Below, piece after piece: positions 1,041-36,747 of a DNA stretch of 64,000 bases. The first letter of the stretch is position 1; every line of letters starts with the position of its first letter. The notes below the pieces were generated by a model that was not told where the DNA came from, made no database searches, and saw nothing but the letters and a program-made list of their open reading frames with translations. The translations under genes and the position numbers were made by a program. The stretch is from UHGV virus genome UHGV-0018629; one strand, 5' to 3'. This stretch comes from a virus.

Positions 1041-2587
1041 GTAACAATACATATCAGCACGTATCAAATGAATCAAAATATGTTAAATTCGATCCAATTG
1101 GATCGAATTTTCCTGACACCGTCACTACGGTGCAGTCAGCATTATCAAAAATAAGTAATATCGGAGTAAATGGTATTCCTGACGCAACTATGGAAGTTAA
1201 AGGAATAGCAATGATTGCATCGGAGCAAGAGGTTTTAGATGGAACTAATAATTCTAAAATCGTTACACCCGCTACATTAGCAACAAGATTATTGTATCCA
1301 AATGCTACTGAAACTAAATATGGTTTAACGCGCTATTCAACAAATGAAGAAACTTTAGAAGGCTCAGATAATAATTCGTCAATAACTCCACAAAAATTGA
1401 AATACCATACTGACGATGTATTCCAAAACAGGTATTCATCTGAATCATCAAATGGAGTTATTAAAATATCATCTACGCCTGCGGCTTTGGCTGGAGTTGA
1501 TGATACTACGGCGATGACTCCGTTGAAAACCCAAAAACTCGCAATAAAATTAATTTCGCAAATAGCTCCTTCAGAAGACACAGCATCAGAATCTGTTAGA
1601 GGTGTAGTTCAGTTATCAACTGTCGCTCAAACTCGCCAAGGAACTCTTCGCGAAGGATATGCAATTTCACCGTATACCTTTATGAATTCTGTTGCAACAC
1701 AAGAATATAAGGGCGTTATACGTTTAGGAACGCAATCGGAAATTAACAGTAATTTGGGAGATGTTGCAGTAACAGGCGAAACACTAAATGGTCGAGGAGC
1801 TACTGGTTCTATGCGTGGTGTGGTAAAATTAACGACGCAAGCCGGTATTGCCCCCGAGGGTGATAGCTCTGGAGCATTAGCATGGAATGCAGATGTAATT
1901 AATACACGCGGTGGACAAACTATTAATGGTTCTTTAAATTTAGACCATCTTACAGCAAATGGAATTTGGTCGCGCGGCGGTATGTGGAAAAATGGTGATC
2001 AACCAGTTTCAACAGAACGTTACGCATCAGAAAGGGTTCCAGTTGGAACTATTATGATGTTTGCTGGAGATTCAGCTCCTCCTGGTTGGATTATGTGTCA
2101 TGGTGGAACCGTGTCAGGAGATCAATATCCTGATTATAGAAACACAGTTGGAACGAGATTTGGTGGTGATTGGAATAACCCCGGTATTCCTGATATGCGA
2201 GGTCTTTTCGTCAGAGGAGCTGGCACAGGAGGTCATATTTTAAATCAACGAGGACAAGATGGTTACGGGAAGGATAGACTTGGTGTAGGATGTGACGGAA
2301 TGCATGTTGGCGGTGTTCAAGCACAACAAATGTCATACCATAAACATGCTGGTGGTTGGGGAGAATACCAAAGACATGAAGCTCCATTTGGCGCGTCCGT
2401 TTATCAAGGATATCTTGGAACTAGAAAATATGCCGACTGGGATAATGCTTCATACTTCACTAATGATGGATTTGAATTAGGTGGACCGAGAGATGCCCTT
2501 GGTACGCTTAATCGTGAAGGATTAATTGGTTATGAAACTAGACCATGGAATATATCATTAAACTATATTATTAAAATTCATTACTAA
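1037..2587 (+). CDS. 12: Short tail fibre protein gp12
   Basis: 516 aa, ATGA overlap with gp11 stop, Gly/Thr-rich fibre-like sequence, T4 gene order. Confidence 0.9.
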
Positions 2588-2596
2588 GGATTACAA

Positions 2597-4054
2597 ATGA
2601 TTGAATTAAAAGAGTTACCTTTTGTTGATAGCGTTCCTGGCGAAGGTCAGGAACGTATTTCATGGATTAAAAATGGTGAAGAAATACTAGGAGCTAGTAC
2701 TAAGTATGGAAACGATGGATCAATGAATAGACCAACTGTTTCCGTGTTTAAAAATGTTGAGGTTCTTGATGAAAATATAGGAATTCTTAAAACTGCCGTT
2801 GAAACATCACAGGAAGATATTAAAACAATTCAAGGCATTTTGGATGTATCTGGAGATATCGAAGCACTATCACAGATTAGCGTTAATAAAAATGACATAT
2901 CAAATTTAAAGACGCTTACGAATGAACACACTGATATATTAAATGGTACAAATACTACGGTTGACAGTATTCTTTCTGATATTGGTCCATTTAATTCGCA
3001 AGCAAATTCAGTTTATAGAACAGTTCGAAATGATTTGTTATGGATTAAAAGGGAATTAGGACAATATGCTGGACAAGATATTAATGGTCTTCCTGTTGTA
3101 GGAAATACTAGTACTGGAATGAAACATCGTATTATTAATAATACTGATGCTATAACTTCTCAAGGAATACGTTTAAGCGATTTAGAAGAAAAATTTATTG
3201 AATCTGATGTAGGTTCGCTTACAATAGAAGTAGGAAATCTTAGACAGGAATTAGGGCAAAGACCGCCTTCATTTAGTGAAAGCATATATTCACGCGTATA
3301 TAATTTAGATCAAGCGCAAATTGATCTAAATTCTGAAATTAAATTTATAAAAACTTCTATTGGATATCCAGGAAATACTTCAATAATCACAGATGTCAAT
3401 GTCAATAGTCAAGAAATTTCAGCTTTAAATGATGAACTAAATAAAAGTGGCGGCGTTAAACAACGATTAACTGTTATTGAAACATCGATTGGTTCAGATG
3501 ATATTCCTTCTAGTATTAAAGGTCAAATTAAAGATAATACCACTTCTATTGAATCTTTAAATGGAATTGTAGGTGAAAACACCTCGTCTGGTTTAAGAGC
3601 CAATGTTTCATGGCTAAATCAGATAGTTGGAACTAATTCTAGCGGAGGCCAACCTTCTCCTCCGGGGTCTCTTTTAAATAGAGTTTCAACTGTTGAAACC
3701 TCTGTTAATAGACTTAACAATGATGTTCAAAACTTGCAAGTTGAAATTGGTAATAACAATTCCGGAATTAAAGGACAGGTTGTAACATTAAATAAATTAG
3801 TAAATGGAACAAATCCAAATGGTTCAACTGTCGAAGAACGTGGATTAACTAATTCAATAAAAGCTAATGAAACTAACATTTCTTCTATTAATCAAGAAAT
3901 GCGTAGTATTAAAAGTAATGTATCTTCATTACAGGCGGATGTTCAGACTTTACAGGAAGCAGGTTATATTCCTGAAGCTCCAAAAGATGGTCAAGCTTAC
4001 GTTCGTAAAGACGGCGAATGGGTATTACTTTCTACCTTTTTATCACCAGCATAA
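2597..4054 (+). CDS. wac: Fibritin (whisker antigen control, neck whiskers)
   Basis: 485 aa; long heptad-repeat coiled coil; C-terminal foldon-like sequence [27 protein letters not shown]. Confidence 0.93.
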
Positions 4055-4056
4055 CA

Positions 4057-4072
4057 TGGGGCCGCAAGGCCC
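4057..4072 (+). terminator. GC-rich stem-loop (GGGGCC-GCAA-GGCCCC) followed by T-run, downstream of wac
   Basis: Perfect inverted repeat read directly in sequence. Confidence 0.5.
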
Positions 4073-4086
4073 CAAAGGATTTTTAA

Positions 4087-5788
<1,702 letters not shown>

Positions 5789-5829
5789 TAAATACTATAA
5801 ACTAATTAAAGCCCAGATTAGGAGAAATC

Positions 5830-8970
<3,141 letters not shown>

Positions 8971-31194: not shown

Positions 31195-32159
31195 TGTATT
31201 CTTTAGAGGAATTTAATAACCAAGCAATAAACGCAGACTTCCAACGTAATAATATGTTTAGTTGCGTTTTTGCGACAACTCCATCAACTAAAAGCTCTTC
31301 GTTGATAAGTTCAATTAGCAACTTTTCTTATAATAACTTGGGCCTAAATTCAGATTGGTTAGGACTAACTCAAGGCGATATTAATCAGGGAATTACCACG
31401 TTAATTACTGCTGGCACACAAAAACTGATAAGAAAATCAGGGGTTAGTAAATATCTTATTGGTGCTATGAGTCAACGTACAGTTCAAAGTTTATTAGGCT
31501 CATTTACAGTTGGTACATATTTAATTGACTTCTTTAACATGGCATATAACTCATCTGGGTTGATGATATATTCTGTAAAAATGCCAGAGAATAGATTATC
31601 CTATGAAACTGACTGGAACTATAACTCTCCTAATATTCGTATAACTGGAAGAGAATTAGACCCTTTGGTTATTTCATTCAGAATGGATTCAGAAGCTTGT
31701 AACTATCGTGCAATGCAAGACTGGGTTAACGCTGTTCAAGACCCAGTAACTGGATTGCGTGCTTTGCCGCAAGATGTCGAGGCAGATATTCAGGTTAATC
31801 TTCATTCTCGTAATGGATTACCACATACTGCGGTGATGTTCACTGGCTGTATTCCAATATCTGTGAGTGCTCCTGAGTTATCATATGATGGAGATAACCA
31901 AATAACTACATTTGATGTTACTTTTGCGTACAGAGTCATGCAGGCTGGAGCGGTTGATAGACAAGCTGCCCTTGAATGGCTTGAATCTGCTACTATAAAT
32001 GGTATTCAAAGCGTTCTCGGAAATAGTGGAGGTGTTACTGGACTATCTAATTCGCTTTCACGACTTAGTAGATTAGGGGGAACTGCAGGAAGCATTTCAA
32101 ATATTAATACTATGACAGGAATTGTCAATTCGCAAAGTAAAATATTAGGAGCAATATAA
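31194..32159 (+). CDS. 54: Baseplate tail-tube initiator gp54
   Basis: 321 aa, T4 order. Confidence 0.92.
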   Translation: MYSLEEFNNQAINADFQRNNMFSCVFATTPSTKSSSLISSISNFSYNNLGLNSDWLGLTQGDINQGITTLITAGTQKLIRKSGVSKYLIGAMSQRTVQSLLGSFTVGTYLIDFFNMAYNSSGLMIYSVKMPENRLSYETDWNYNSPNIRITGRELDPLVISFRMDSEACNYRAMQDWVNAVQDPVTGLRALPQDVEADIQVNLHSRNGLPHTAVMFTGCIPISVSAPELSYDGDNQITTFDVTFAYRVMQAGAVDRQAALEWLESATINGIQSVLGNSGGVTGLSNSLSRLSRLGGTAGSISNINTMTGIVNSQSKILGAI

Positions 32160-32478
32160 CAATGGGGACCTTTCGGTCCCCATTGTTATATTTACGGAAT
32201 GAAATAAAAGCAGCAACTGAAGCAACTAAACTTTCTTCAATATAAACCTCAATTTTTACCGGAGCTTCTGACTCAAATTTACCTGTTACTACACCTTGGA
32301 AAATACTTTCAGTCTGCTCTGGCTTTGAAAAATTTTCAGAAGGAAAAATTCCGAACTTTTTATCGGTTCCGAAAATTTTAATAAATTCATCATAAACTGC
32401 TTCATTGAAAGCGTTATCAGCTGGAATAACGCCCTCAACGACGAGTTCTTGACCTAAAAAGCGCAAAGAAGATTTCAT
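32125..32478 (-). CDS. Hypothetical protein (T4 alt.-3-like by position); 3' end reads through the gene 54 terminator hairpin, true stop uncertain
   Basis: 117 aa ORF. Confidence 0.45.
   Translation of the reverse strand: MKSSLRFLGQELVVEGVIPADNAFNEAVYDEFIKIFGTDKKFGIFPSENFSKPEQTESIFQGVVTGKFESEAPVKIEVYIEESLVASVAAFISFRKYNNGDRKVPIVILLLIFYFAN
32163..32184. terminator. Stem-loop GGGGACC-TTTC-GGTCCCC after gene 54
   Basis: Perfect hairpin read in sequence. Confidence 0.5.
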
Positions 32479-32486
32479 TTTGTGTT

Positions 32487-32539
32487 CCTCATATTATGTC
32501 AGTAAGACTATTATAACACAACACGAGGGACTTGTAAAC
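32487..32539 (-). promoter_or_regulatory. T4 early-type promoter (GTTTAC -35, TGTTATAAT extended -10) inside a ~53-bp element repeated at 48359..48411
   Basis: Reverse complement reads GTTTACaagtccctcgtgttgtgTTATAAT. Confidence 0.5.
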
Positions 32540-34596
32540 TACATCTTGAACTTTTTAGACATTCCGTTGATGTTAACCAAAGAAGCCAATATTTGAGAAA
32601 CTTCGTTTTCCTCTTCTTTTGATTCTTCTACAAGGAATTGATTAAACCCAGCCATTGGACGAACTTCACCAGTTTCCATTAGATGATCGCCATCATATAC
32701 TGATTCTTCTAATTGTTCAGAAGGAGGAACGATTGTGCCTTCGATTAGATACTTATTATAAGCAGTTTCTTTCGTCATGTACGTACTTACTTTATTAATC
32801 TTCAGTAAAATTCCACGTGGCAAAATAACTTCAGCTTCGGATGGAAATCCTGATAAATGACCTGGAACGATAACTTTAACTCGTTCAGCTCCTTTAATTA
32901 CCATACCTACATTAGTTTCAGCGTCTTCATTCGCATATGTAGAATGACTACCCATATGCATTAAATCTTCGGCATCAACTGAACCTTCTCCTTCGCCAGA
33001 AAATACTGCTCCGGAATCATCTAGAGCCATATAATTTTTACCATACTCACCAAAGATATTTGGTTTAAGTGATGTCGATACGAAGTTCTTGAAATAGAAC
33101 ATTTTATTTTCAATGTTATGACGCAAAGTTTTAAAGGTAACTTCTTGCCCGCGATAAAGAGTAGTTCCTGGAGGAAGAACTGAACCTTTAGTAAATGCAG
33201 AATCCAACGCTTCGATGTTCTTAATAGCACGTTCCATATATTCTTCACGGGTGGAATCTGGTTTACCTAAAAGGAACGAGTTCATTTCAACATATGAATC
33301 TGCACAATACTCTTCAATTACATCAGACTCAGCCTGAGTTAATCCTTTTGGAGTTACTTCAGTGCTTGCATATTCATACGCCTGAGCAGCGGATTCATCA
33401 ATCAATTTATAAATTCCATTCATTACAAATTGAATAATAGCTGTCTTTTCATCTGGTGTAGCTTTAGAACCTTTAACTAAATCATTGATAATTTTCTTAA
33501 TAACATCAAAGCTATTAGAAATATTAATATCAGCAAGATCGCTTAAAATTTTATCAGCTTTATAATTAAAAAATTCTTTATTCTTTGAATATTCCTGAGA
33601 ACCTTGATATGATATATCGCTCTGCAACTTGATAGATGGATCACGTAAACGTGCATGAGCCAATGCAATATGATTTCTGAAGCTTTCTAATTCATAATCG
33701 CTAGATTTAAAACGAGAAGCACTTCTCATACCACCGATAGCTCCTTTGCTGAAGTTTGAACCAACTTGAATAACACCAGAGTTCATCGGTCCTTCTGCTT
33801 TATATACCGGAACTTTAGATTCAAACTCTTGATATTTCTTGGCAGCGAAGCTATCACCCTGAAGTGAAGCATCAACAGTAGAATATTGAGCTTGTGCTGC
33901 TAATCGACGACTAATTTTAGTTTTTTGAATAACAACTTGATCCGTGCGCTTATCATTTTCTAAAGCAATAGAAGCAGCAACAGCAACAGCTTTAGGAACA
34001 GCATTTCCTGTTTTAACGTCTACATAAACATCACCGACCTTTGATTCAACTTTTGTGAATAGCTCTGTTGAAATAGGAGGTACACCTGGAATGTCTTCTA
34101 AATTGGCATTTTTACGGTAAACCATAATATATGCATACTTTTTATCATAATCCCAGATTTCCTTTAAAAGAACGTATCGACCTGCTCCTTTAGTACGTAC
34201 TAAACGGTCAGCAATAACTTGCATTTGACGAGCTGCGCCATTTGTTTTACTCTTTAGTACGCGGAATAAGCATGCATCAATTTTATACTGTTTCATTGTT
34301 TGAAGAGCAGTATCAAAAACCGCATTAATGACACCAATTGGATTTCCACCTAAGTTTTTAAGTTTAACTAATGATAGTTTCTCATTAACACCTATCATTA
34401 CGATATGCATCATTTTATCGCCTGGCTTAACGTTTTTATTTGTATCACCACCAGAAGTGTATGTACAAAATCTAAATCCAGGGAGAACACTTTCTTCACC
34501 GGCTTGAATAGCAAAAATTTGAGGTATTTTATGCTTAGGATTTAAGTTAACAACCGGCGCCGAAGCGCCGTCAAATAATTCTGTAATAAGTTCCAT
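32539..34596 (-). CDS. Alt-like ADP-ribosyltransferase paralog (upstream copy)
   Basis: 685 aa; N-terminus MELITELFD; C-terminal ART motifs YRGQ, FVSTSL, SEAEVILPRG; about 60% N-terminal identity to the adjacent copy. Confidence 0.85.
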   Translation of the reverse strand: MELITELFDGASAPVVNLNPKHKIPQIFAIQAGEESVLPGFRFCTYTSGGDTNKNVKPGDKMMHIVMIGVNEKLSLVKLKNLGGNPIGVINAVFDTALQTMKQYKIDACLFRVLKSKTNGAARQMQVIADRLVRTKGAGRYVLLKEIWDYDKKYAYIMVYRKNANLEDIPGVPPISTELFTKVESKVGDVYVDVKTGNAVPKAVAVAASIALENDKRTDQVVIQKTKISRRLAAQAQYSTVDASLQGDSFAAKKYQEFESKVPVYKAEGPMNSGVIQVGSNFSKGAIGGMRSASRFKSSDYELESFRNHIALAHARLRDPSIKLQSDISYQGSQEYSKNKEFFNYKADKILSDLADINISNSFDVIKKIINDLVKGSKATPDEKTAIIQFVMNGIYKLIDESAAQAYEYASTEVTPKGLTQAESDVIEEYCADSYVEMNSFLLGKPDSTREEYMERAIKNIEALDSAFTKGSVLPPGTTLYRGQEVTFKTLRHNIENKMFYFKNFVSTSLKPNIFGEYGKNYMALDDSGAVFSGEGEGSVDAEDLMHMGSHSTYANEDAETNVGMVIKGAERVKVIVPGHLSGFPSEAEVILPRGILLKINKVSTYMTKETAYNKYLIEGTIVPPSEQLEESVYDGDHLMETGEVRPMAGFNQFLVEESKEEENEVSQILASLVNINGMSKKFKM

Positions 34597-34599
34597 GAT

Positions 34600-36696
34600 T
34601 TATCCTTGAACGAACTTGTAAGGCATGTTTGTAATATCTATGCAAGACGCAATAATTCCAAGAGATGATTCTACTTTTTGTTTAACATTTGATGAAACAA
34701 ATGATGCAAAGTCAACTCTGTCTTCTATTTCAATATCACCTGTCATTGCAACTACTTCACCGGTTTCCATTAGATGGTCTCCGTCATAGATTACCGATTC
34801 GGTGAGTTCTTCTATGGTCATAACTTCAGCTTGAATGAGTTTTGTATTATTAGATGTTGTTCCGTCATTATTAGAAGCATCAGTTATTTTATTAACTTTA
34901 ACCATCAATCCGCGCGGTAGAATAACTTCAGCTTCTGTTGCTATTCCGAGACTTCCTGGATATACAACATTAACTTTATGAGCTCCATCAATTGCCCATC
35001 CTATTTGAACTTTAACGTATTCAGGATTTTCTTTATACGCTCTTATTTCATTTGGATTAATAGTTATTCCTTCTTCATTTTTATCAACTGTCAATTCATT
35101 ACGAGCTTCTGGTTCTAAAAGACCAATACCAGCATGTGTAATTCCAAAACGTCCAAAAATGATAGGAGTTAAAGAAGTAGATACAAAATTTCTGAAATAG
35201 AACACTTTATTTTTAACTAGTGCTTCGTATATAGGAGCAGTCATACTTTGAGCACGATAAACTGTGATGCCTTCCGGTATACGGTCACCATTTTCAAAAG
35301 CTGAATCTAAGTTATTTATAGCAGATTCAATTTCTTTTTCACTCATTACATCATATCGTTCTGGATTGTAACGACCTAAAAGAAGATTATTGATGTCAGT
35401 ATATCCTGAACCGCAATATTCTCTAATGCCACGCTTTTGTAATGGAGTATATTTAGAACCATCGCGGGCAATAGTAATATCAATCATTGAACCAGCACCA
35501 ATTCCAGAAAAACTGTAAATCATTCGTTTGAGGAATTTAGTTTTTGCTGCGTTCCAGGAATTTTTAGTTATTTCTTCCCAGACTTCATCTGGTTGTCCTT
35601 TACGGGTTTTATTATGACTAGCAAGCCATTTATCTTTATAATCTTCAAAGAATTTATTAACAGCTGCTGCGTATTTCTCTAAACATTTTATTGAAGTAGT
35701 TGGTTCATTTTTAATCGCGTTAAAAATTACATCTTTAATTTTTTCTGAAACTTCACCGACTTGACTCATTGGAAAGAATTTATAGTCATAGTGAAGTTCA
35801 TCTGCAGTTCCTTCAGCAATAATTTTTGCTGCCTTAGTTTTAGAAGCCAATGAATTAATTCCAAGTTTCATTTCTTCTGCTTCGGGAATTAAAGGAGCGG
35901 TAGCAGGTTTATTGAAATTAGCTGCGGTAGATTCATACTTCTGGAATAATTCACTTTCAAATCTAGAAGATTCTAATGATTGACTTTGTGCAATTGCTCT
36001 ACGGGAAATTTTAACTTTAACGATTACAGCTTGGTCAGAACGTTTATCGTTTTCTTGCGCAATAGATGCTGCAATTGCCTCATTTTTAGTTACTTGAGCT
36101 CCGGTATCTTTATTGATATAAACATCACCGACCTTCGATTCAACTTTAGTAAAGAGCTCGGTACTAATTTCCGGAACTCCTGGAATGTCTTCTAGTGATA
36201 CATTTTTGCGATGTATAAGAATATATGCATACTTTTTATCATAATCCCAGAGTTCCTTAAGAAGGACATATCTGCCACCTGAACGACTACGGATAAGTCT
36301 ATCAGCAATAACTTGAATTTGTCGAGCTTGACCAGCGGTTTTAGACTTAAGAATACGAAGCATGCAAGCATCAATTTTATACTGACGCATTGTTTGCATT
36401 GCAACAGTAAAAACTGAATTAATATAATTAATTGGGCTTGGACCGAGACCTTTCAATTTAGCAATTGAACCTTTAGCGGTTAATGTAAAAGGAACAATGT
36501 GCATCATTTTATCGCCCATTTTTAAATCACGGTTAGTATCACCTCCAGATGTATAGGTGCATAGACGAAAGCCTGGTTGTTCAATTGCATCATCAACGTG
36601 AACTGAAAAAATTTGTGGTATTTTCTTCTTTGGATTTAAGTTTGTAATCGGAAGAGTAGTATCTTCGTCAAATAATTCTGTAATAAGTTCCATCAT
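34600..36696 (-). CDS. alt: ADP-ribosyltransferase Alt (injected host RNA polymerase modifier)
   Basis: 698 aa; N-terminus MMELITELFDEDTTLPITNL; ART motifs YRAQ, FVSTSL, TEAEVILPRG. Confidence 0.88.
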   Translation of the reverse strand: MMELITELFDEDTTLPITNLNPKKKIPQIFSVHVDDAIEQPGFRLCTYTSGGDTNRDLKMGDKMMHIVPFTLTAKGSIAKLKGLGPSPINYINSVFTVAMQTMRQYKIDACMLRILKSKTAGQARQIQVIADRLIRSRSGGRYVLLKELWDYDKKYAYILIHRKNVSLEDIPGVPEISTELFTKVESKVGDVYINKDTGAQVTKNEAIAASIAQENDKRSDQAVIVKVKISRRAIAQSQSLESSRFESELFQKYESTAANFNKPATAPLIPEAEEMKLGINSLASKTKAAKIIAEGTADELHYDYKFFPMSQVGEVSEKIKDVIFNAIKNEPTTSIKCLEKYAAAVNKFFEDYKDKWLASHNKTRKGQPDEVWEEITKNSWNAAKTKFLKRMIYSFSGIGAGSMIDITIARDGSKYTPLQKRGIREYCGSGYTDINNLLLGRYNPERYDVMSEKEIESAINNLDSAFENGDRIPEGITVYRAQSMTAPIYEALVKNKVFYFRNFVSTSLTPIIFGRFGITHAGIGLLEPEARNELTVDKNEEGITINPNEIRAYKENPEYVKVQIGWAIDGAHKVNVVYPGSLGIATEAEVILPRGLMVKVNKITDASNNDGTTSNNTKLIQAEVMTIEELTESVIYDGDHLMETGEVVAMTGDIEIEDRVDFASFVSSNVKQKVESSLGIIASCIDITNMPYKFVQG

Positions 36697-36729
36697 ATCC
36701 TCTCTAGTGTTTATTCTATTTATAAAATT

Positions 36730-36747
36730 AAAGGCCCGAAGGCCTTT
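36730..36747 (-). terminator. Stem-loop AAAGGCC-CGA-AGGCCTTT between small ORF and alt
   Basis: Hairpin read in sequence. Confidence 0.45.

Follow-up and report, generated by a model that had tools for sequence, protein, structure and literature searches.

Alt of bacteriophage T4 is a prohead-core protein of which each head holds about 40 copies and which is ejected into the host (PMC9026906). As determined by mass spectrometry, gp21 cuts Alt at ITE-6 and at LTE-619, which takes off 6 residues from the N-terminus and 63 from the C-terminus and leaves a mature protein of 68.2 kDa (PMC5694885), a mass that we recomputed from the T4 sequence. In the T4 genome (NC_000866), alt (682 amino acids) is followed by alt.-1 (61 amino acids), alt.-2 (67 amino acids) and alt.-3, and a GenBank note explains alt.-1/alt.-2 as the first part of alt, duplicated long ago. 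The same two small genes and a gene of phage 44RR had already been described as paralogous alt duplications (Nolan et al. 2006, PMC1524935). Here we analysed a stretch of 64,000 nucleotides from the virus genome UHGV-0018629 (the window), in which two adjacent minus-strand genes encode full-length, divergent Alt proteins. Our best explanation is that the window comes from a Tequatrovirus (T4-like phage) with the alt locus in its ancestral two-gene form; that the two genes belong to two old lineages, AltA and AltB, which also occur as alta and altb in Dhakavirus; and that both are predicted to encode functional Alt-family R-S-ExE (arginine-type) mono-ADP-ribosyltransferases with a shared four-part layout. 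Taken as a whole, we consider this explanation probable.

The stretch has T4-like gene content and a G+C content of about 35%. Near the alt pair, gp29, gp48 and gp54 lie on the plus strand; next, on the minus strand, come alt.-3 (DUF5498), two long open reading frames (ORFs), alt.1 (Phage_blade) and DNA ligase gene 30. The pair thereby occupies the position between gene 30/alt.1 and alt.-3/gene 54, in the same order as in T2, T6, PYPS2T, QL01 and JS98. The two genes and their landmarks are as follows.

34600..36693, minus strand: upstream Alt gene (AltA lineage, positional ortholog of T4 alt), 697 amino acids from the second ATG; identified by ORF scan, BLASTP, Pfam and PHROG.
35254-35256, 35173-35181 and 34927-34935, minus strand: upstream Alt residues R480, STS505-507 and E587-A-E589, respectively.
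34603-34797, minus strand: C-propeptide codons of the upstream Alt, with predicted gp21 sites after E6 and after E632.
32539..34596, minus strand: downstream Alt gene (AltB lineage, intact form of T4 alt.-1/alt.-2), 685 amino acids.
33151-33153, 33070-33078 and 32830-32838, minus strand: downstream Alt residues R482, STS507-509 and E587-A-E589, respectively.
32542-32703, minus strand: predicted disordered acidic C-propeptide of the downstream Alt (residues 632-685), preceded in the protein by the N-propeptide (residues 1-6), the alpha/beta N-domain (~12-223), the helical middle (~250-470) and the ADP-ribosyltransferase (ART) core (~478-625).

The upstream ORF opens with tandem start codons, ATGATG (36693-36696), and a mechanical ORF call from the first ATG at 36696 gives 698 amino acids. 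The gene almost certainly starts at the second ATG, at 36693, and encodes a protein of 697 amino acids with a MELITE N-terminus, because it is annotated so in every fetched relative with this allele (T2, T6, IsaacDaniel and WL-3), because this start fits the published six-residue removal at ITE-6, and because ribosome-binding-site spacing favours it.

Upstream and downstream Alt are 42% identical over their full length (BLASTP, E = 2e-162) and are therefore similar far beyond chance. Both match the Pfam family PF03496 (ADPrib_exo_Tox; 1.3e-36 upstream, 1.8e-20 downstream) and, end to end, PHROG 802, 'Alt-like RNA polymerase ADP-ribosyltransferase' (2e-272 and 5.6e-255); aligned to T4 Alt, the upstream protein is 72% and the downstream protein 44% identical. 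The two window proteins agree best in the N-domain (67-68% identity) and least in residues 236-415 (17-18%); the ART domain (37%) and the C-terminal tail (43%) lie in between. The original prediction, made from the sequence of the stretch, had described two adjacent full-length, divergent Alt-family ORFs on the minus strand with a strongly diverged central region, and the coordinates, profile matches and regional identities bear this out. The motifs that it quoted (MELITELFD, YR[AG]Q, FVSTSL and EAEVILPRG) are found in both proteins, and the upstream copy does not lack the catalytic R-S-E, a possibility that it had raised: R-S-ExE of the arginine-type ART clade aligns in both proteins with R478, STS503-505 and E574-M-E576 of T4. 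The arginine motif takes the form YR[AGS]Q and the glutamate motif the form E-[AM]-E-VILPRG in both window proteins and T4 Alt. Among 21 compared Alt sequences, all 21 retain R and ExE, and the STS motif varies in three (SAS in QL01_3 and JS98_b, SCS in 44RR_1). Catalysis is abolished in a published T4 Alt mutant, E577A (PMC11404850), a name that is offset by one residue from the numbering of the ExE glutamates, E574 and E576, of the NC_000866 translation.

We made an AF2 model of the downstream Alt (mean pLDDT 74, pTM 0.58, with the ART core and the helical middle mostly at 80-92). In this model, residues 1-11 are disordered and followed by an alpha/beta N-domain (~12-223), a low-confidence linker, a confident all-helical middle (~250-470), the ART core (~478-625) and a disordered tail (629-685). 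The predicted four-part layout of Alt would consist of a 6-residue N-propeptide with the conserved alpha/beta N-domain, a helical middle, a C3/Vip2-like ART core and an acidic, disordered C-propeptide. A search of PDB sequences with the downstream protein gave zero matches at E <= 0.01, and a structure of Alt was therefore not obtainable by sequence. Foldseek related the modelled ART core to Vis, C3, Certhrax, CDTa and Vip2 (E 1.6e-7 to 1e-4, target-normalised TM ~0.6). The window proteins thus have the catalytic fold and R, STS and ExE in common with the R-S-E toxins of PF03496 (C3 exoenzyme, Vis, Vip2, CDTa and iota-type toxins), at a sequence identity of 13-19%. The likeness to the binary and C3-like exotoxins is confined to this fold: the window Alts have no secretion or B-component-binding domain and, unlike the bacterial toxins, have an N-domain specific to phages, a helical middle and propeptides predicted to be cut off by protease. 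T4 ModA and ModB are likewise R-S-ExE ARTs encoded by a phage, with host proteins of transcription and translation as their substrates (PMC10468400); they differ in being about 200 amino acids long, made after infection rather than packaged, devoid of the Alt N-domain and encoded elsewhere in the genome. A further family, PF26846, presumably the Alt N-terminal region, is precomputed alongside PF03496 on all full-length Alt homologs; our local Pfam copy gave PF03496 alone for both window proteins.

Comparison with T4 establishes which copy is which. The upstream protein is 100% identical to T4 Alt (NP_049811) over residues 1-245, 90-96% identical over the last ~75 residues and 26-62% identical between; by domain, the middle is 34%, the ART domain 64% and the tail 96% identical. 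Because its N-domain and C-terminus match T4 Alt, the upstream gene is the positional ortholog of T4 alt, a mosaic with a different middle and ART allele. The original prediction had taken the upstream copy for an intact paralog beside the single alt gene and small ORFs of T4. Its description of T4 is correct, with no second intact gene at that place in NC_000866, and the upstream copy is indeed intact; the extra copy is the downstream gene, and the upstream one occupies the T4 alt position.

The T4 genes alt.-1 and alt.-2 (NP_049810, NP_049809) match the 5' end of the downstream gene at 331 of 348 nucleotides (95%), compared with ~67% for either alt gene. Two lesions separate the T4 remnant from the window gene: a 1-nt deletion in an A-run (AAAAA to AAAA) that shifts the frame, and a 1,699-bp deletion that joins CTAAA(G/A)AGT at gene nucleotides 340-348 to the matching 9-mer at nucleotides 2039-2047. 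The boundaries of the latter lie in the window at these repeats.

34249..34257, minus strand: left 9-bp repeat CTAAAGAGT, gene nucleotides 340-348, upstream boundary of the T4 deletion.
32550..32558, minus strand: right 9-bp repeat CTAAAAAGT, gene nucleotides 2039-2047, downstream boundary of the T4 deletion.

Neither the truncating frameshift nor the internal deletion is present in the window gene, which has 685 uninterrupted codons and retains the two 9-bp repeats with the intervening 1,699 bp. The early promoter of alt.-3 is identical after the T4 deletion junction and after the downstream gene of the window. The profiles of PHROGs 23015 and 15247 have 61 and 67 positions, the lengths of T4 alt.-1 and alt.-2, and match the downstream protein at 2e-40 and 3e-38 and the upstream protein at 1e-21 and 2e-19. 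These data indicate that T4 alt.-1/alt.-2 is the deletion remnant of a full-length AltB paralog and not a partial alt duplication, which refines the T4 annotation. The two small T4 genes and the downstream ORF are accordingly the same gene with the same downstream flank, broken in T4 by the two deletions. T4 Alt itself shares the whole architecture of the downstream protein at ~42% identity, but the lineage of the downstream gene, a separate one, survives in T4 only in broken form.

The original prediction had treated the tandem arrangement as a departure from the usual; it is the majority state of Tequatrovirus and already annotated. By tblastn, the downstream protein is present in ~397 phage records at 95-99% identity, and each of those listed has it in full length; 91 records, T4 among them, have the T4-type deletion junction; the downstream gene is intact in ~80% of sequenced Tequatrovirus records. 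The 5-kb locus has ~96% DNA identity to more than 300 phage records, with 345 records covering at least 80% of it. Most of these are annotated 'Alt-like RNA polymerase ADP-ribosyltransferase (x2)', while RB14 and RB51 name the second gene alt.-2. T2 and T6 carry both genes. For the upstream gene, the window-type allele occurs in ~317 records and the T4-type allele in ~211. Yersinia phage PYPS2T combines a T4-type upstream allele with an intact downstream gene, which is how the ancestor of T4 should have looked. Outside Tequatrovirus, Dhakavirus JS98 is annotated with alta and altb, Dhakavirus QL01 with three tandem Alt genes and Aeromonas phage 44RR (PMC1524935) with two; all three have tandem full-length Alt paralogs in the locus order of the window. 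In T-even phages, two alt genes are thus the ancestral condition, kept by the majority and annotated before, from which T4 derives by deletion. The gene pair as such is known from public records and will not surprise a specialist. In Krischvirus GEC-3S, the slot after alt holds no full-length paralog and contains a short 274-aa 'ADP-ribosyltransferase' (7053-7877) with its own annotated early-type promoter.

In the middle and ART regions, the window downstream protein pairs with JS98 altb and QL01 gene 3 (46% identity in the middle, 60% in the ART domain, 61-66% in the tail), and the middle, ART and tail of the upstream protein group with T4 Alt, JS98 alta and QL01 gene 1. Flanking orthologs (ligase, alt.1, alt.-3, gp54 and gp48) set the vertical baseline, with 59-67% identity between the window and QL01, and the AltB ART domain and tail lie at this level, which is compatible with a duplication that predates the split between Tequatrovirus and Dhakavirus. 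The Dhakavirus and 44RR loci differ from the window in that QL01 has a third copy and the 44RR copies fall outside a clear AltA/AltB assignment. The three full-length tandem Alts of QL01 (1864-8124) have 694, 681 and 707 amino acids; the middle and ART region of its middle copy is unlike either lineage, with 12-22% and 29-40% identity to all others.

The domain trees conflict: N-domains cluster by genus, the middle and ART regions by paralog type (AltA versus AltB). N-domain identity is 67% between the window copies, 65-69% between alta-type and altb-type proteins of Dhakavirus and 41-45% between the genera; the N-domains of QL01 genes 2 and 3 are 90% identical. This pattern suggests either co-evolution of the N-domain with a genus-specific prohead-core partner or old gene conversion. 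Recent gene conversion between the N-domains is unsupported, with a 5' DNA identity of ~67-70% and no long identical tracts. The upstream window protein and QL01 gene 1 have ART domains that are 94% identical but N-domains with 45-46% identity. This comparison shows a horizontal exchange of the catalytic module between genera and points to a recent one.

Both Alt genes are under strong purifying selection. Across six downstream orthologs, all of 685 codons, the mean ratio of nonsynonymous to synonymous substitution rates (dN/dS) is 0.056 at a dS of ~0.2, with 0.028 in the N-domain, 0.091 in the middle, 0.056 in the ART domain and 0.014 in the tail; the propeptide-bearing N-domain and the tail are thus the most constrained parts. 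Five upstream orthologs give a dN/dS of 0.060, and every domain stays below 0.14 in both sets.

We also searched the locus for expression signals and found the following candidates.

36717..36724, minus strand: putative late promoter motif of the T4 type, TATAAATA, ~25 nt ahead of the first alt start; found by pattern search.
36730..36747, minus strand: GC-rich hairpin AAAGGCCTTCGGGCCTTT followed by AATTTT, overlapping the alt.1 stop codon just before the late promoter; found by sequence inspection.
34603..34607, minus strand: Shine-Dalgarno sequence AAGGA within the final codons of upstream alt, at a distance of 6 nt from the downstream ATG.
32510..32538, minus strand: strong predicted sigma-70/T4-early-type promoter (TTTACA, 17-nt spacer, TGnTATAAT; 11 of 12 matches), directly after the downstream alt stop.

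The pattern search for TATAAATA returned 18 matches in the window against 8.6 expected by chance. The match at 36717-36724 is the sole such motif upstream of the gene pair, and the intergenic gap between the Alt genes, only 3 nt long (34597-34599), contains none. Because of this gap, the pair looks like a bicistronic late unit and is probably translationally coupled; both genes would then be transcribed late as one message from the single TATAAATA promoter. The hairpin is likely a terminator that separates alt.1 from the alt unit, although a consensus scan of the window did not flag it, and the predicted promoter at 32510..32538 would serve alt.-3 and mark the end of the unit. Within the coding region of upstream alt, TATAAATA recurs exactly at 35313-35320 (minus strand), ~715 nt ahead of the downstream start, either by chance or as a possible internal promoter from which the second gene might be transcribed late.

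The N-termini had been predicted to fit the prohead-protease pattern, and they do: the ITE-6 site of T4 Alt is kept in both proteins, together with a C-terminal LxE. The aligned C-terminal site, located by its motif, is LTE-632 in the upstream and LEE-631 in the downstream protein, ~55-65 residues from the C-terminus and before an invariant YDGDxLMETGE. LxE is also present at both aligned sites in the Dhakavirus and 44RR (Biquartavirus) paralogs. Cleavage at these sites would give mature masses of 70.1 kDa (upstream) and 69.0 kDa (downstream) and acidic C-propeptides with a predicted pI of 4.2-4.6. We assign the gp21 sites because LxE is conserved at aligned positions, not because the motif exists. 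Packaging of the second enzyme is therefore a likely prediction from conserved motifs. In the proposed pathway, both Alt proteins would be built into the prohead core, gp21 would trim both ends (at ITE-6, and at LTE-632 or LEE-631), and both enzymes would be injected with the DNA into the next host, where they may modify host proteins by ADP-ribosylation, in the way that T4 Alt modifies the RNA polymerase alpha subunit. For the second enzyme, we infer co-transcription, packaging, processing, injection and distinct targets.

The two lineages differ around the active site. The loop from STS to the ADP-ribosylating turn-turn (ARTT) motif differs between them in length, sequence and charge, and an aromatic residue (F/Y) two to three positions before ExE occurs in AltB-type proteins only. 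In C3-like ARTs, these loops govern substrate choice (ARTT motif). Because the helical middle and the active-site loops diverge, it is a reasonable inference that AltA and AltB have distinct, possibly overlapping, target ranges. The different host targets suggested in the original prediction are plausible. We tentatively propose, at somewhat less than even odds, that AltB is a second head-packaged, injected ART with host targets that differ from those of classical Alt. Literature searches returned no published data on the biochemical role of the AltB enzyme.

If this proposal is true, AltB would act, for example, on other transcription or translation factors, toxins or defence proteins, and an infection by most T-even phages, T2 and T6 among them, would begin with two injected effectors. 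T4 as a model, with its AltB deleted, would then under-represent the first wave of host takeover, and the locus would be a cassette system that joins a packaging N-domain typical of the genus to interchangeable middle and ART modules. Work on injected ARTs has been done almost entirely in T4, which is without the second enzyme; if that enzyme has its own targets, part of the T-even repertoire of early takeover and counter-defence is still uncharacterised.

Several points weigh against our explanation or parts of it. The trees behind the two lineages are neighbour-joining trees without bootstrap support, and at a locus that swaps modules an ancient duplication and horizontal module transfer are not cleanly separable. 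T4 and 90 other records do without the downstream gene, which is hence dispensable on laboratory hosts. Each protein has 8-11 matches to [LI]xE, so that the short motif alone is weak evidence. Searches of the literature and supplements found no virion proteomics mentioning the downstream protein, nor its cleavage, injection or activity. Papers on Yersinia T4-like phages that used liquid chromatography-tandem mass spectrometry do not mention Alt in the main text, and the accessible part of the fD1 supplement lists ModA/ModB-region genes only. A paper on anti-restriction by injected proteins (PMC12373910) and a preprint on phage contingency loci, both considered as sources, are not about Alt.

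Finally, both enzymes keep the arginine-type ExE and could be largely redundant: both would be packaged and mainly modify RNA polymerase alpha, with the second copy adding dose or robustness. The common overall architecture, the loss of the second copy in T4 with no known defect and the non-essentiality of Alt itself (PMC9026906) agree with such a redundancy. We nevertheless consider it unlikely given the low identity in the middle and ART regions, the loop differences with the AltB-restricted aromatic residue, and the persistence of two distinct lineages across genera, each under strong purifying selection, which is unexpected for simple dosage duplicates.

More doubtful still, at about half the weight we give to redundancy, is that the downstream gene encodes an active ART that is not packaged and acts late in the producing cell in the manner of ModA and ModB. 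Packaging is itself deduced from the protein sequence, and T4-like phages do encode such enzymes (PMC10468400). The downstream protein, however, has the whole conserved N-domain and both cleavage motifs at the T4 Alt positions, and its N-domain and tail have the lowest dN/dS; its gene would be the second cistron of alt behind a putative late promoter, and the ~200-residue ModA and ModB have none of these modules. We rejected, as almost certainly wrong, the reading of the downstream gene as a decaying duplicate or pseudogene heading to the T4 state, to which the 91 remnant-only records and a UTI-E4 record with the gene split in two pieces could be held to point, because the 685-codon ORF is intact in the window and in five of five fetched relatives, evolves at the low dN/dS given above, conserves its catalytic residues, recurs in ~397 records at >=95% identity and has orthologs in another genus.

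One flanking gene lies outside the pair but helps to define the locus.

32125..32478, minus strand: alt.-3 (DUF5498), in the conserved gene order gene 30 - alt.1 - alt genes - alt.-3 - gene 54.

Scans of the window for tRNAs and Rfam families found no RNA genes. The stop codon of alt.-3 is lost in the window (TAA to TAT relative to T4 and T2), which lengthens the ORF from 96 to 117 codons. The added codons cross the bidirectional terminator hairpin GGGGACC...GGTCCCC and reach ~35 nt into the 3' end of gene 54.

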